This document shows, in pieces, positions 1,040-64,000 of a stretch of DNA of 64,000 nt. The notes under the pieces are model-generated. The model saw only the letters and a list, made by a program, of their open reading frames with translations, was not told where the DNA came from and searched no databases. The stretch is from NCBI GenBank assembly GCA_951406725.2, contig OX597831.1, positions 12,648,001 through 12,712,000 on the forward strand, read 5' to 3'. This DNA comes from Octopus vulgaris. Lineage: Eukaryota. Within the stretch, counting starts at the first letter, position 1; the number at the start of each line of letters is the position of its first letter. The position numbers and the translations under genes were made by a program.

Positions 1040-1085
1040 GACACCTGATGAAGGCTGGTGGGTATATCAGCTGAAACATTGTGTT
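1040..1085 (+). ncRNA. Minimal type-I hammerhead ribozyme motif (CpG-decayed)
   Basis: GACAC-CTGATGA-A-GGCTG-GTGGGTATAT-CAGCT-GAAA-C-ATT-GTGTT: stem I GACAC/GTGTT, core CUGAUGA, stem II GGCTG/CAGCT, then GAAA. Confidence 0.75.
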
Positions 1086-1410: not shown

Positions 1411-2819
1411 GATGTGTTTAAAAATAACTTAAGAGAACTCTTTTAGAAGACAATTTCAGATAATGTTGCTGCATGCAGTGATATAAGCTTTCTTGTTGCG
1501 ACTATTAGTCATTTTATTGTAAGGAATCGGAAAGAAAATGGTGAGTAACCAATTAACATTAAAGCAGAGATTTCTTTGTTCTGTGTAGATGGGGGAAAAA
1601 ATAACAAAAAGAAATACAACAGAAAATAAGAAACTACTTAGGAGCAATTAGCTTTGACCTCTGCAACCAAAGCAATCTCCCACTGCTTCTGATATTATTG
1701 CTGACTTTCAGTCTTATTGTTGGTGTATGCGTACACCCACACACACACGTATATCTATACATACATACATACATACACACAGACACACATTAATTTTCTT
1801 TTTTGAAATCATATAGACATTTTTCAATTCATGTAGCCTATTTTCAGTAGGTCTTTGATAATGGTTCTTTTACCAAAAATTTAGCATAAAATTCTATGAG
1901 CGAATCAACAGCTGAATAATGCTATATTTAAGCGACTTTATATTTAAATCTATATGATATAAGATGGAAATCGAGTTTGAAAGGAAATAGGAAATAAATA
2001 AAAACAAAACGGTATTATTTTATGACTCTGGAAATGAAATGACAGAAATTTATGTAAGATCATGTTATAGCTTTGGTATAGATAAAACTTAGAAAGCAGA
2101 ATATCAAAATCTGTAATCTCACAATAGACACAATATATTCTTTATAGAATTCATGTATTTAAAGATTAAACAATTGTAGCAGTTTACTAGGAAACTGTGC
2201 ACTTTCTATTTAAGTAAGTAGACACAAAATTTAATTTGACTTTGACAAGTTAAAATGTCAATAAATATTGAAAGCAAAATACACTACAGAAAATGCTCCA
2301 TAAACTATACACACACACACACAAAATATATCTAGAATCTGGAATGCTGAACCAATGATGTAATAAAATTCCTCTCATATTTACTCCTTTATTTAAGGTG
2401 GTGGGAATGATATAATTCAATATAGTTGTTCTACAGATCTCTAAAAGCTGGCAGCGTCAGTATTGTAACATCTTTGATTACATGGTGAGATTGTTTAATC
2501 AAAATGCTGAACAACAGCAACAACAGAAATGAATAAAAATATTCTTTTCTACTTTAGGCACAAGGCCCGAAATTTTTAGGGAGGAGGCCAGTCAATTAGA
2601 TTACCCCCAACTGAGAGCTAATTTATTGACCCCGAAAGGATGAAAGGCAAAGTTGAACTTGTCAGAATTTGAACTCAGACTGTAAAGACAGACAAAATAC
2701 CGCTAAGCTTTTCAGCCGGCATGCTAATGTTTCTGCCAGCTCACCGCCTTAACATGAATAAAAATCTCCTTTGAATCAGACCAATATTATCTTCAATTAA
2801 TAAAAACAAAGGTTGCACA

Positions 2820-3405: not shown

Positions 3406-6400
3406 TAATCCTTGATTAGCTATCGTAAATCAATGAAATAGCCTCTATGTGATCACATGACCCACACCCGCCAAAATAAATATCATTCAAACGATCTTAA
3501 AAGAGGAAGGAATCACTAGATGATGTAGTCCAGAGACAGGAAGGCCACAGCTAGAATGCATTTGATTATAAGTCAACACAAGGTTGACTTAAGCTGATGG
3601 CTAATTAAGAACAGCAACAGATTTGCTGCTATCATTAAGCAAGTGCTGAGCTTAGATATTCTGAAGAGTAGAATACTGAATAGACAGTGAAATAAGGAAA
3701 AAAAAGTACATTTTTATCTTTAGAACAATTACAAGCAAGATCAGTGAAAACTATGGATTTGCAAAAAATAACTGTTATAAGTTTTTTTTTTTTTTTAAAC
3801 TTCTAAAGATAGGCAAAATAAGAAAATGCAATCTGAAACTTAGCTTCATTTCAATTATGTGTGTGTATAAGAGCAACGTTAAAAATGTATTAATTCAAAA
3901 GATTCTCCAGATTAGATTAAAATAATTCAGAAGTTAATTTTATTTTTAGCTGAAAATATGAATCACAAAATATAAGAAAATATTATGAACTGTCTATGAG
4001 GAAACACACACACATACACAATTAAAAACAATAAATATTTTATTCATTTGTCTTTATCTTCAATATGAAAACATGTTTAATTAGTCATTTGCTGTCTCAC
4101 TCATACTTATTGATTCATAAAGTGAGATTGTTAGTAGCATTAAAAGGAGCTGAAGAAAGAGGAAACCAAGCTTCAGATTAAAGACTGAGATCTGAGAATC
4201 ACTATGTTGTTATATTTAAATTCACTCACTATGTCAACAGAAAAAGAATAAACAACAAAAATACACAAAGAACAAAACAAATAAATAAAATTGGTTATGG
4301 AAATATAAAATAAACAAAATAATAAATCTATTAAAAAAATTAGTTTAAAGTAACAAGATATAAGGTAAATGTAAATGTATAGCAAACAGGTGTGAACAGT
4401 TTGTTAAATGTTCTATGTGATTGTGAAACTAAATAAACATTATATCACTACAACTGTTGGGTAATTTTTGCCTGCTTCTGATATATTTAACAGTTTACAT
4501 CTATAAGAGATGCTTTATCAATATGAATACTGCAGTTTAGGAAGCTTTCAACAGTATAATGCTTTAAGTATGATGTGCAGATCACTAATTTGAACAAATA
4601 TTACTTTTGTTGCTAATAACAAACATCATATTTTATATATTCATTTAATTTGCATATGACATAGTAATTTAAGGGCAGTCTCATTATCATTTTCAAAATG
4701 TTCAAGAATGGTCAGAGGAAGAGAAGCAGTTATCCTCTGACCAGAGGGTAACCTGCTTTGAATGCTTACAACAGAATAGAATCTGCTATAAACAGCCATA
4801 GTCCAGATGGGGGAAATCAAACCAGGAACAGAATTAAGTAGACCAGTCAAGAACAGGAAGTGTCCCACTGACATGCTTCCACATAGTTTCTGCCTACCAA
4901 AATCACTCACAAGGCTTTGGCTGAGTTGTAGCTAGAGTAGAAAACATGCTAAACTGTGTCACTCATTGACATTGACCTCAAAACTGCCAAGCCAACACCC
5001 ACACACTAAAATTCATCAGAGCAGCAACTATCTAATAAAAGATTATTGATTAGGTAAGATAATCTTACATGCTATTGAGCTTAGAGATGTTTTGGTTTCA
5101 GTTCTTCAGAGTTTGCAAAAACATGTCATGCAATACAGTTGAAGTTTAAGATAAAAATATAAGTTGCAAGAATATAAGGCTGTATGGTTAAGAAGTTTAC
5201 TTCTAAATTATGTGATTTTGAGTTCACTTCTACTGTGTGGCACCTTGGGGTAAGAGTATCCCGCTGTAACTTTGGATCAACCACAATCTTGTCAGTGAAT
5301 TTGGTGGACATACACACACACACACACACGTGTGTGTGTGTATGGTTATGTATGTGAGTGTGTATGTATGTGTGTATGTATGTATGTATATATATATTTT
5401 ATGCTACCATGGGTTGAATACTTCAACAAGATCTGATGAGAGAGAGAGAGAGAGAGAGAGAGGGGGGAGATGCCTACAGTGTAGGTTTATGGATGTGAAT
5501 GGTTGTGCTTGTGTTTCCTTGTCTTGACATTGTGCAATAATTGCAAATGAATATCACCATCACTCAAGCAGTGTCATTCATTCTCAGTCGTCTGTGGAGA
5601 CTTGTCTGACCATGGGGGGGGGGACTTTCTCTTGCTTAGAAACAAGTGAGTGTTAGTAACATGAGGACCATCTGGCAATAGAAGACCAGCTTCAACAAAT
5701 TCTGTCTGACCCATGCAGGTATAAAAAAAATTGGACATTAAAACGATGATGAAGACGAATCTACTTGATTAAAAAGCTCTATGATAAAAGGTATTCCGGT
5801 CATGACCATCTCACCTTAAATATCTAGGATTAAAATATCCAATATATATTTTCCATTTTAGAAGATACAGTTTGGGGAAAATTCAGTTGCAGTTTCTACC
5901 AGATTATGTGACCACATATAATCTCCCTCTTGTCTGGATTTGCTTTGTTAGATAATTCATTTACGCAAATGGGAATCACTTAGATTAATTTGATGGTCAG
6001 GCTTTGTATAATAATGAACTATCATAAGTCAGCCTAAACTAAATTACTCTCCTGAATATAGTTATGATTGAACTAAGTGAAGCTTGACAGGACAGATATA
6101 GCATGTGTTGCTTGTTTATACAATACATTCTCTCTGAAACAACTTCTTTCCTTTCATAACTCATTCTTTCTCTCCAATACAAGTATTAATACTGTATTTC
6201 TTTCTCTCTCTCTCTCATGTGTATGTGTATGTGGAATCAACCATCAGGATTCAGTTTCATTGGGTAATATCAATCTAACTATAATATACCAATGGTAGAT
6301 TTTAGTGGAACATTACTCATAACCATTTTCCTTTCAGTTGGATAGATAGTGCTCTTCTAAACAATTGGTGCTGACATGGCTTTGTATGGTTAAGAAGTTC

Positions 6401-8837
6401 ACTTTACAACTTCAGGGTTCCAGACTCAATTCTCACTTTGTCGTCTCTTGGATAAGTATCTTCTGTCCTAGCCTTATGCCAGCACACACAGTGAGATTTG
6501 ATAGGCAGAAACTGTAGCAGTCCATCATATATATATATATTAGAAATTTCAAGAGACAAGAAATAATTTTAACAGTGCAATTTAAAGTGGATAAAGCTAT
6601 AAATAATATCATCATCATTCATCATCATTCAATGTCCATTTTCCGTGCTAGCATGGGTTGGACGGTTCGACTGGGGTCTGGGAAGCCAGGAAGCTGCACC
6701 AGGCTCCAGTCTGATCTGGCAGTGCTTCTACAGCTGGATGCCCTTCCTAACACCAATACGTGTGTGTGTGTGCATGCGTGCAGGAGTGTTTGTCTCCCTA
6801 TTTGACATCATGCAGTATCTCTTGTTTCTAGTCTTTTGTGAAAATATCCACTATCATCTTGCTTGGAAACTGGTAAGATTTGAGAAGAAATGCATTTGGT
6901 CATACAAAAAGAAAAAAAGAAATGTACCTCAACAAATTCTGTCAGATCCATGCAAGCAATGAAAAGTGGACGTTAAAATGATGATGGTGTCAAATCTGAT
7001 AGTGTCTTAACTAGTAGATGGAAACTGAGAAAAAGCCAGTCATACAAAAAGCCAGTCATACAAATGCTTGTGGGTATAAGTGGATGTGTGGAGGTGTATG
7101 GCTTAGTGGTTAGGGTGTTGGAATCTTGATTCTAAGATTGTGGTTTTGATTCTTGGACTGGGTGAGCTGATGTGTTCTTGAGTGAAGAACAGCATTTTTT
7201 CTACTGCTCCAGTCCACACAGCAGGTAAAAATGAGCAATCCTGTGATGACCTCGCATCCCATCCAGGAAGGAATATTTATGCTAGAGAAACCAGCCCTTT
7301 ACTCCTTACAGAGTAATGTGGACTAACCATAAGTGCATATGTGTGTGTGTTTTTTTCTTCCATGTGCTCTCATTAACACTAAATGGAAAAATGGTATTTG
7401 CTTACATTCTCCAGTAAACAGAAGTATTACAGATTCAGTTTTTGGTATATGAAGACCAGTAGTTGAAAAACAAAAACAAAGCAAACAATAAAAATACCTT
7501 ATTTAGAAAATAGATAAGGGTTGGTAAGATGAAGAGCTTCTGGTCACAGAAAATCTGCTTCGGTAAGTTTCATCTAACCCAAGCCAGTATGAAAAAGCAG
7601 ACAATACCTTACCATTCTCAATCAAAAATGCAGTGAATCAGTGACAGGCTCACTGGAAATCTTTAACCAATGATGTAAATGTTCACCAAATATGTGATAT
7701 TAAATAAATATATAAAAAAAATTAATACATCATCATCATCATCATCATTTAACGTCTGCTTTCCATGCTGGCCTGGGTTGGACGGTTCAACTGGGGTCTG
7801 TGAAGCCAGAAGGCTGCACCAGGCCCAGTCTGATCTGGCAGTGTTTCTACAGCTGGATGCCCTTCCTAACGCCAACCACTCCGTGAGTGTAGTGGGTGCT
7901 TTTTACGTGCCACCGACACAGGCGCCAGACGGGGCTGGCAAACGGCCACGGACGGATGGTGCTTTTTACGTGCCACTGGCACAGGGGTCAACCTCATTAG
8001 AGTTCGCTACATAATGCTTCTAATTAAAACAAAAGTAGTCTAGAAAGTGTTTGTAAATCTACATCTTTTTTTTTAGATTTAATTATTTCACAGTAGTACT
8101 CACAATTTCATGCACTTTCACATAATGCCAATGACCTTGTTTTGTATGCACGTGTGTGTGTGTGTGTGTGTATATATATCATGATCATTATATATATATA
8201 TATATATGTGTTGCCCCAACCATTACTTGCAGTGAATGTTTTTTCACATTTGCTTTTTTTCTTATCTTTGTCTTAAAAATAGATAATACTTTTGCACAAA
8301 TAACTGCTTGCGTAATAGATATGTTTAATTTTGCGTTTGATCAGTTATCTATGTTAATAAAAGGATTTCTATGTAAGAAATAAAGTTGACTGCTTCTAAA
8401 TTGCATACTGCTGGAGATTGCAGGCAGTACACATGTTTAATTTCATTCAAAAACGTTTTCTTTATCCATTAACATAGTTGCAGGCATGGCTGTGTTGTAA
8501 GAAGATTGTTTCTCAACCATATCACATTGGGCCCGGTCCCACTGTGTGGCACCTTTGGCAAGGGTCTTTTAGCACAGCTTTGGACTGACCAAAGCCTGTG
8601 AATCGATTTGCTGATTCAGTGGAAACTGAAACAAGATTCTTGCATGTATGTGTGTTTTCCAAAATGAAGACAAACACCTTTCTCCATGTGATCAGCTTGA
8701 AAAATTAAGATACTAGGATATTTTCCTACATTTCTAAATATGAAACCAATGGTAGCGTTAATTCACAAATAAAGTATATCTACCAATGCAGTGCTGAAGA
8801 CTCTCATTTTCATTGTTTCACATTTACACACACACAC

Positions 8838-22029: not shown

Positions 22030-23445
22030 CTGGAATGCAGTTTGGAATAAGTGAGTGTGCAGTGCTAATTAAGAAGATAAACTCTGGTGTCAAAATTATC
22101 ACAACATCATTAGATTGCCATGGAATAATGAGGGGTACAAAGACTTAGGGGTACTGAAGATGATAGGATAATAGGAGAAATGAGAGAAAATCTCTAAAGA
22201 GCACAAGAGACTGGATGGTGCTTGAAATGTGATTAAATAGAGTAACCATCATTAAAGCAATTAATACATGGGCCGTACCAGTGTTGAAATACTTTGCTCT
22301 CTCCCCAAAATGCACAAAAGCTGAGCTACAGAATTAGGACAGAAGAACTAGAAAGCTGCTCACAATACACAACATTCTGAAAGTAGTACTGACAGACTCT
22401 ATGTATCAAGAAAGGAAGGAGGAGGAAGATTACTAAATGAAGAAGACACTGTAAGGACTGAGATATTGGTGTTGAAAATTTATGTTGTGTGGAGTGAAGA
22501 AAGAATACTATTGGTAGCTAGAGAAGCCTAAAATGTTGCTGAAACAGTAGAATTAAAAAGGAGGAGGAACAATAACAGACCAAGCAGGTGGAAAGAAATG
22601 GAATTAAATGGACAATTTATACAATAAACTGATGCTGTTGGAAGTGCATAATGCTGGCTATGGTTGATGAATGGAAACCTGAAATGAGAGACCAAAGCAC
22701 TAATTATAGCTGCTCAGGAACAAGCTATTAAGATGAATCTGATAAAGGCAAAAATTGACAAAACTGAATCTTACGACAAATGAAGAATCTGCAAGTAAGA
22801 AAATATTGTGTCTTGAGTAAGTACAAAAATCTAGCACAAAAAGAGTATAAGTGCAGGCGTGATGTGTAAGTAAAAGAGTGAATTAGGATGTTAGCTAAGT
22901 GTATGGCTTTGATATAACCAGAGAGTGAACATCAACCAGATGCTGTGACAGGAAATAACAAGAAAATGAACATAAACTAGAGGCTGTGACAGAGAACAAG
23001 AATTATGGAACTTCCTCATAAAGACTGACCATACTATTATAGATATTATACAAAACAAAATAAACAGTGTAAGATTACATTACTTACATTTGATGGATAT
23101 CTGTCCTCTTCTTGTTTGTTGTTAACACAATGTTTCAGCTGATATACCCTCCAGCCTTCATCAGGTGTCTTAGCAACAAACAAGATGAGAACAAATATTT
23201 GTCAAATGTAAATAATGCAAAATCAACAATTATTCCTGTGGTAATTTGTGCAATTGGCACAACATCAAAATATCAGCCAAGAGAGTGAAATTTAGACTTA
23301 TATTGTCAACTTGCAGAAAAGTACTATCATATGTTCCATAAGAATCCTAGGAAAGATTCTTGAGATATGAGGAGACTTGTGGTCATCAAACCTCAAGATA
23401 CTCCTGTTAATTAAATTAGCAAGTACTAGCTTGATAATGATGATA
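22030..23445 (+). mobile_element. Decayed R4/Dong/NeSL-like (restriction-like endonuclease) non-LTR retrotransposon, 3' half
   Basis: Interrupted motifs IKAINTWAVPVLKY, RRTRKLLTIH, DRLYVSRKEGG, ETKALIIAAQEQAI, KTDH, IIPVVICAIGTT and LQKS, followed by an (ATA/ATG)n tail. Confidence 0.8.
23076..23219. mobile_element. Third inverted family 1 insertion, hammerhead at 23124-23169 (-)
   Basis: Reverse complement GACAC-CTGATGA-A-GGCTG-GAGGGTATAT-CAGCT-GAAA-CATT-GTGTT, followed by an inverted tail at 23174-23219. Nested in the R4-like LINE. Confidence 0.8.
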
Positions 23446-52737: not shown

Positions 52738-53413
52738 GGATCTTTTCCTTTTGAACGGCAGTTTTCAACACAATTTCTAGTTAACTAAACACTTTTAAAC
52801 TTCGTATACTGGTAGAATGTGTCAAAATAAAACGTTTTTTTCTCTTGGCTTTCTTGAGAAAATTGTAATTTGTAAGTTTAACGTAGTTTAATTTTTCGAA
52901 TCTTAACCAATCCTATGGCCTCTATTGAGCTAAAATCATTTGCTGCGTCTAAAACTGAGACAACATCCCGTCACTAACCCTAACCCTAAATTTTAGCCTT
53001 TCGTTTTTTTTTTCTTAATTGTTAAATTAATTTAAGGATAACAATTACGAAAAAAAACGAAAGCAAAAACTCAAAACAAAAACAAAACGAATAATTTTAG
53101 ACACACGCGTAACAATTAAATTAATTTAACAATTAAGAAAAAAAAAAACGAAAGGCTAAAATTTAGGGTTAGGGTTAGTGACAGGATGTTGTTTGTTTTA
53201 GACGCAGCAAATGATTTTAGCTCAATAGAAGCCATAGGATTGGTTAAAATTCGAAAAATTAAACTACGTTAAACTTACAAATTACAATTTTCTCAAGAAA
53301 GCCAAGAGAAAAAATATGTTTTATTTTGACACATTCTACCAGTATACGAAGTTTAAAAGTGTTTAGTTAACTAGAAATTGTGTTGAAAACTGCCGTTCAA
53401 AAGGAAAAGATCC
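52738..53413. mobile_element. Palindromic Merlin-like MITE with ~300-bp arms
   Basis: GGATCTTTTCCTTTTGAACGGC...GCCGTTCAAAAGGAAAAGATCC. The 8-bp flanks are GAATTGCT / GAATTGTT. GG termini, and TAACCC repeats in each arm. Confidence 0.85.
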
Positions 53414-53508
53414 GAATTGTTTTGACTATAGAGCGGCTGAGTCAGAATTGATCTCAGGTTTAAATATGAACGATGTAAGAAGGAAAATGACGATCATTGA
53501 TTATTGAA

Positions 53509-53705
53509 TTACGCAGATGTACTTGCATAGCAAGTGACTTGATCTGAGATCGTGTGCTGAAACAAAAACAATTGCAGCGTGGAAGGTGTTTATAAGCCAT
53601 CTAAAAACACACAAAAACCGTTAGATTCACTTCAGCATTTAAATTTCATTTGTCAAAATAATTTTCGCCGCTTTCAGACCGCGACCTGTTCACTGACAAA
53701 ATTCC
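53509..53705 (-). mobile_element. Family 2 short element with G3-C8 hammerhead motif (53649-53700)
   Basis: Reverse complement of 63790-63988. Motif TTTGTCA-GTGAACA-G-GTCGC-GGTCTGAAA-GCGGC-GAAA-ATTAT-TT-TGACAAA. Confidence 0.75.
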
Positions 53706-63751: not shown

Positions 63752-63782
<31 letters not shown>

Positions 63783-63796
63783 GATGCAGCACGGAC

Positions 63797-63846
63797 TTTG
63801 TCAGTGAACAGGTCGCGGATTTTAGCGACGAAAATATTTTGACAAA
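63797..63846 (+). ncRNA. Minimal type-I hammerhead motif, G3-C8 core variant (within family 2 element 63790-63988)
   Basis: TTTGTCA-GTGAACA-G-GTCGC-GGATTTTA-GCGAC-GAAA-ATAT-TT-TGACAAA: perfect 7-bp stem I, 5-bp stem II and a palindromic AATATT stem III. Confidence 0.75.
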
Positions 63847-64000
63847 TTAAACTTAAATGTTGGAGTGAATCGAACGGCTTTTGTGTGTTTCTTAAATGGC
63901 TTATAAACACCTTCCACGCTGCAATTGTTTTCATTTCAGCACACGATCTCAGATCAAATTACTTGCTATGCGAGTACATCTCCGTAATATATATATATAT

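Follow-up and report, generated by a model that had tools for sequence, protein, structure and literature searches.

The window analysed here, a stretch of 64,000 nucleotides of Octopus vulgaris DNA (contig OX597831.1, positions 12,648,001 to 12,712,000 of the forward strand), carries close to its right-hand end a short insertion derived from a Penelope-like element (PLE), the first part of which folds as a hammerhead with an exchanged core pair, G3-C8. The features of this insertion, and a second copy elsewhere in the window, are as follows (ORF, open reading frame; MFE, minimum free energy).

53508-53700, minus strand: second copy, of an older subfamily, 89% identical over 194 nt, with its hammerhead at 53649-53700
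63752-63778, no strand: (AT)n target microsatellite; AT repeats start again past 63988
63781, plus strand: extra G, missing from the parent at this place, likely copied from the RNA cap
63782-63988, plus strand: solo PLE insertion, which likely begins at the RNA 5' end and stops at the 'tail' (distal start of reverse transcription); its ends fit the 5' and 3' hot spots of the family
63797-63846, plus strand: type I short-stem-III hammerhead fold, by strict descriptor and MFE folding; predicted cut after U63839
63797-63803 and 63840-63846, plus strand: stem I, 7 bp, read from the sequence
63804-63810, plus strand: core strand G3 U4 G5 A6 A7 C8 A9 (GUGAACA), with G3 = 63804 and C8 = 63809
63811, plus strand: extra G after the core, at position 9b (G9b), read from the sequence
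63812-63829, plus strand: stem-loop II, 5 bp (arms 63812-63816 and 63825-63829), G10.1-C11.1, 8-nt loop
63830-63839, plus strand: G12-A13-A14-A15.1 (GAAA, 63830-63833), palindromic AUAU, U16.1 = 63838, U17 = 63839
63896-63988, plus strand: first 31 codons (93 nt) of the PLE ORF, sharing its frame with the ORF start of the parent in the full-length locus L059

The insertion ends at 63988, where an earlier note on this DNA had placed its end; its start lies at 63782 (63781 with the extra G) and not at 63790. The exchange described in that note, GUGAACA replacing CUGANGA with positions 3 and 8 both changed yet complementary, is borne out: the motif carries G3 and C8 and thus fails the literal CUGANGA core (C3, G8), the two positions form a Watson-Crick (G-C) pair, and U4, G5, A6, A9, G12, A13, A14, A15.1, U16.1 and H17 are every one present. 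The attributes of a minimal type I hammerhead are found as well (stems I and II, G10.1-C11.1, a base at 9b and a palindromic stem III remnant), with G at 9b versus H in the published consensus. Stems I and II constitute the MFE fold (-14.7 kcal/mol, z = -3.4, with 1 of 200 shuffles equally good), and the strict descriptor finds no site across 40 dinucleotide shuffles of the window. The complete hammerhead topology that had been claimed holds for stems I and II, the core and GAAA; 'stem III' of the monomer consists of two A-U pairs around a 2-nt loop, and the monomer topology is therefore not complete. As had also been anticipated, a CUGANGA pattern search misses the motif, since such a pattern cannot match a G3/C8 core. 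Rfam returned no hammerhead family for the window (E≤1) or for a 291 nt piece (E≤10), a test that is insensitive as the canonical-core motifs of the window were equally missed; its listing holds only microsatellite-driven microRNA and small nucleolar RNA noise.

The Penelope-type derivation proposed for the motif, from a pseudo-long terminal repeat (pLTR), is as good as certain, the search for longer copies having led to the parent element. The genome searched (G000, 2.8 Gb) contains many members of the family to which the window motif belongs, hereafter family A, and longer copies extend upstream into a GIY-YIG domain. Locus L031 harbors a 999-aa open stretch in which reverse transcriptase (RT) motifs (YVDD) are followed by a Zn-linker (CX3CxxC) and by a Pfam match to GIY-YIG, that is, the single ORF with RT and C-terminal GIY-YIG that defines an endonuclease-bearing PLE. 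Locus L059 is a complete unit made of an inverted part (1-1809), a pLTR (1804-2921), the ORF, which in that copy carries stops and frameshifts, and a second pLTR (6081-7182); the hammerhead motif lies at the end of both pLTRs, 4,261 nt apart, and the window copy shows 2 mismatches over 202 nt to the 3' one. The parent ORF starts at an ATG equivalent to window 63896 and is overlapped at its start by the pLTR repeats; direct pLTRs of this kind, inverted 5' parts and a tail are all hallmarks of PLEs. In the protein P0001, the CX2-5CxxC linker precedes GIY-YIG at residues 870-877; its RT was assigned from motifs, Pfam RVT_1 giving no match to P0001 and a weak match to its sister P0002, and a PDB sequence search returned only weak bacterial RT matches. 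Residues 444-572 of P0001, which separate RT motif A from motif B by 128 aa and include residues conserved across the clade, form an insertion-in-fingers-like segment such as PLEs with a C-terminal endonuclease do not usually have.

Family A is abundant and homogeneous at the core. A DNA search of the genome gave 2,077 candidates, the best 40 scored being all 99-100% identical, and an exact 19-mer across the core gave 6,459 matches (19-mer counts include inverted partner arms); the C3-G8 version of this 19-mer, with the same flanks, has 0 matches in the same genome. When positions 3, 7 and 8 are left free, 7,079 matches are obtained, of which 218 are without G3 and 401 have G3 without C8, leaving 6,460 (91%) with G3-C8. 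The family consensus retains GUGAACA, GAAA and the pairing of both stems, as the ribozyme family put forward in the earlier note would have to. Contig sets under two other organism labels also show the GUGAACA core, in their loose-end consensus lines. At one locus (L063, G000:C28:4988500-4997900) the motif is found in a retrozyme-like tandem array of at least seven units of ~180 nt, each with a G3-C8 motif and most with G10.1-U11.1.

The ends of the short copies were mapped on the first 30 matches of contig C1, anchored downstream of the cut, a sample that includes paired arms of one insertion and local duplicates. The 5' starts fall within 63776-63785 in 17 of the 30, mostly 15 nt before stem I, and the 3' ends form two classes, at 63925-63932 (13/30) and 63979-63989 (15/30); these two classes are the PLE 'tail'. 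G precedes the start in 308 copies of the older subfamily, and A, C or T in 427. Because 15 of 30 sampled A/C/T copies simply extend upstream into the pLTR, ~59% of the copies with this start have a G that the parent lacks, compared with a G content of 17% in the window. The extra G is likely a copied cap, which would make A63782 the likely transcription start; relative to it, the hammerhead begins at +16, the predicted cut falls after +58 and the AUG lies at +115. Directly before this putative start, L059 2702-2721 contains a branch-point-like CTAAC, a pyrimidine tract and AG, so that the upstream sequence may double as a splice acceptor. No RNA holder of the stretch was listed; four contig sets, which resolve neither RNA ends nor strand, contain it, and no GT-AG joint was seen in them, the upstream pLTR being outside their coverage.

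A descriptor scan with positions 3, 8 and 9 free over 14 regions of related PLEs where the motif is expected matched seven of them, all Watson-Crick at 3-8 (1 match in 2,800 shuffles). These seven represent six families, one with G-C, two with C-G and three with U-A, and such consistent pairing has a permutation P of 0.017, the families not being fully independent. The loci L159, L161, L163 and L166-L168, several of them with little flanking DNA, gave no descriptor match, and L165, which by eye looked like a U3-A8 motif, failed the descriptor and was excluded from the six-family count. Family B (RT 58% identical to family A) carries C3-G8 with C9 in the same place before its ORF, and the older sister family C (L204-L233) carries U3-A8 in 33 copies. 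Three metagenome contigs have the motif after the ORF, C3-G8 in L160 and U3-A8 in L162 and L164. A FastTree RT tree groups the families as (A,(B,C)) with support 1.0 and places the others outside, deep nodes being poorly supported; this topology therefore requires at least three double substitutions at 3-8. Stem II pairs also change in compensation among families A, B and C. Watson-Crick pairing at 3-8 in all six families together with these compensatory changes therefore makes selection on the 3-8 pair well supported. Within family A, the differences between the young and the old subfamily spare the core and stems (0/42 positions, compared with 13/155 others; Fisher P = 0.04, counted by eye) and sit in loop II and the flanks. 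In the same clade, many intact ORFs of ~1,312 aa and tandem copies are found in family B (L115-L118, L120, L122, L123, L129, L132), and family C yields 4,196 first-look candidates in G000. The change A9C together with G9b occurs in three lineages of the clade (L162, L435 and family B) and may be a tolerated alternative core.

We read the feature, with a probability of about 0.6, as a solo fragment, from the 5' part of a PLE that amplified recently, with a natural G3-C8 hammerhead fold, which is likely slow and would need a second copy or the element protein, and whose cutting is likely dispensable for insertion. Transcription would start at A63782, the endonuclease would nick the (AT)n tract, and the RT would start inside the ORF, near 63928 or 63988, and copy back to the capped end of uncut RNA; this would produce the ~200-nt copies and their inverted partners. 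From established hammerhead chemistry, G12 would act as general base, and C8, kept in place by its pair with G3, would supply its 2'-OH in place of that of G8. Cutting at +58 would take off the cap, the site lying 57 nt ahead of the AUG, or would shorten read-through transcripts to unit length, and the motif could thus serve as a brake or a processing step on the RNA of the element. Such catalysis is probably weak or assisted. Engineered G3-C8 hammerheads cut (PMC11167929, PMC3884650), another being described in PMC8495972, and the double change C3G/G8C partly rescues a PLE hammerhead (PMC11167929). Minimal PLE hammerheads show weak cleavage as dimers (PMC4209133), and the Anolis PLE hammerhead cuts only with the PLE protein, its in vitro insertion being independent of cutting; in that element, the 'tail' is tied to two RT start sites within the ORF (PMC11167929). 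More doubtful is the larger claim that this would be the first natural, working G3-C8 hammerhead, the wild type of an active PLE family in a clade that might have sampled three of the four Watson-Crick 3-8 forms and repeated A9C because the element protein chaperones the fold; it could then, from its place 58 nt behind the cap, act as a decapping switch that the protein triggers, and many such ribozymes could be invisible to CUGANGA searches.

Several observations weigh against strong cutting. According to PMC8495972, G8C alone slows cleavage 10^5-fold and rescue by C3G is only partial. A G3-G8 combination is present in about 2% of the copies of family A (~140, from 35 among 100 listed of the 401), which is ~6 times the estimate for C3-C8 (11 among 100 listed of the 218), so that C8G is commoner than G3C. 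The G3-G8 copies are scattered over several subfamily backgrounds, and the inverted pairs L249 and L283 have G8 in one arm and C8 in the other; an ancestral intermediate lineage with G3-G8 is accordingly unsupported. A9C, at a normally invariant position, recurs in family B, in one copy of family C and in L162, which suggests relaxed catalytic demands in the clade. Stem III of a dimer would consist of six A-U pairs worth about -0.2 kcal/mol, and cofolding of two monomers gave no double-hammerhead. Finally, copies starting at the predicted cut number ~50-60 genome-wide (16/30 sampled from 112, three of them explained by stem I microhomology), compared with ~20, 40 and 45-60 at three nearby control sites, among 7,375 intact matches; with 30 loci per site, judged by eye and extrapolated genome-wide, there is no pile-up of 5' ends at the cut relative to these controls. 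Since starts at the cut site are not enriched, nearly all insertions stem from uncut RNA, in line with what is reported in vitro for the Anolis element (PMC11167929).

Alternatively, the fold may be kept by selection and no longer cut, as a 5'-leader structure for RT or ribonucleoprotein binding or for start-site or translation control, a role in which the hammerhead shape and the 3-8 pair would count and catalysis would not. The lack of an excess of copies at the cut site, the weak stem III, the recurrence of A9C in relatives, the origin of most copies from uncut RNA and the dispensability of cleavage for Anolis PLE insertion (PMC11167929) all favor such a leader; it is nevertheless unlikely, given that the catalytic positions U4, G5, A6, G12-A15.1, U16.1 and H17 are retained in six families with RTs 47-58% identical to that of family A, and that engineered G3-C8 forms cut (PMC11167929, PMC3884650). 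Very unlikely is a neutral relic, in which the family A ancestor had already lost the ribozyme function, the pairing of G3 with C8 is a coincidence and the motif hitchhikes with the pLTR: once position 3 has changed, about 1/3 of random changes at 8 bring the pairing back, conservation within the family is mostly youth (the best 40 copies being 99-100% identical) and the subfamily test gives only P = 0.04, but the 3-8 pair is kept in all six families in three forms, the remaining core and stem II are intact, and the subfamily changes sit in loop II and the flanks. An efficient ribozyme yielding unit-length or circular RNA from which the short copies spread, as in non-LTR (long terminal repeat) retrozymes, is likewise very unlikely, for while L063 in G000 is one tandem array of seven ~180-nt G3-C8 units, the dispersed copies begin ~57 nt upstream of the cut rather than at it, include the ORF start and end at the PLE tail, and both window copies are solo.

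The second copy in the window (fold z = -2.7) had been presented as evidence of a conserved structure, with one stem II pair turned into G-U. The copy is real and its loop II differs by subfamily, being the sole true subfamily difference among its listed changes; its G-U pair is a minor variant (6/68 older copies), and none of the others among these 68 has its 1-nt insertion in stem III. Covariation between the two window copies is thus rejected, and the covariation claim survives between the sister families, at 3-8 and in stem II. An inverted repeat at 52738-53413, foldback- or MITE (miniature inverted-repeat transposable element)-like with 300-nt arms of 97% identity, adjoins the second copy. 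Canonical CUGAUGA minimal hammerheads of a separate family lie at 1040-1085 (plus strand) and about 23123-23169 (minus strand) of the window, with related pieces near 173-345 and 2620-2763 (both minus strand; approximate positions converted from BLAST against the window), and the window edge at 1-188 consists of a 62-nt unit in three tandem copies.

The nearest known relatives are the minimal type I hammerheads of metazoan PLEs (Cervera and De la Pena 2014, PMC4209133), which share the pLTR location, an extra nucleotide between 9 and 10.1, G10.1-C11.1, the palindromic stem III remnant, mostly solo copies and covariation at 3-8. Theirs are C3-G8 or U3-A8 (the latter in Schistosoma Cercyon) with H at 9b and a stem I of 4-5 bp, whereas the octopus motif has G3-C8, G at 9b and 7 bp. 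The hammerhead of the Anolis Poseidon element PAc (Frangieh et al. 2024, PMC11167929) likewise lies near the ORF start of an element with two RT start sites in the ORF giving a 'tail' and with AT-rich targets; its G3-C8 form is an engineered partial rescue, in contrast to the wild type of thousands of copies here, and its AUG lies inside the ribozyme with a tail of 30-40 nt, compared with an AUG 57 nt after the cut and a tail of ~58 nt. Among the natural core variants of Perreault et al. 2011 (PMC3088659, section 8) there is a comparable compensatory 3-8 change, although that section describes only U3-A8. Nematis and Neptune PLEs (Craig et al. 2021, PMC8557442) share the C-terminal GIY-YIG, the CX2-5CxxC linker, microsatellite targets and inverted 5' parts; the short linker spacing of family A resembles the Nematis rows of their Fig. 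S2 in a by-eye comparison, while RT motif A-B spacing in the Nematis/Neptune rows of Fig. S1 is clearly shorter than the 128 aa found here, and the hammerhead descriptors of that paper are anchored on cuganga. Non-LTR retrozymes (PMC7229834; bioRxiv 10.64898/2026.07.22.740005) also have a type I hammerhead and are PLE-related, and one tandem array of the G3-C8 motif recalls them; they form tandem monomers of 170-400 nt, whereas in the window each copy stands alone as a by-product of an autonomous PLE. Already in print are natural U3-A8 in PLEs and the C3G/G8C rescue engineered in a PLE hammerhead; the natural G3-C8 form is likely, not certainly, new.

The survey of Lunse et al. 2017 reportedly lists very many PLE-linked variants. 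The literature search found no natural G3-C8 hammerhead, Lunse et al. 2017 and Przybilski and Hammann 2007 being outside its reach. The 3-8 pair was defined through a crystal structure and engineered swaps, and the natural covariation found in print is from C-G to U-A only. Surveys anchored on CUGANGA undercount hammerheads and may wrongly label some PLE families as ribozyme-free. From DNA alone, the cap-type G together with the two tail ends locates the probable start sites of transcription and of the RT. A G3-C8 wild type with ~6,500 genomic matches, together with its C-G and U-A sisters in the same genome, provides a natural series on the catalysis that PLE hammerheads need.
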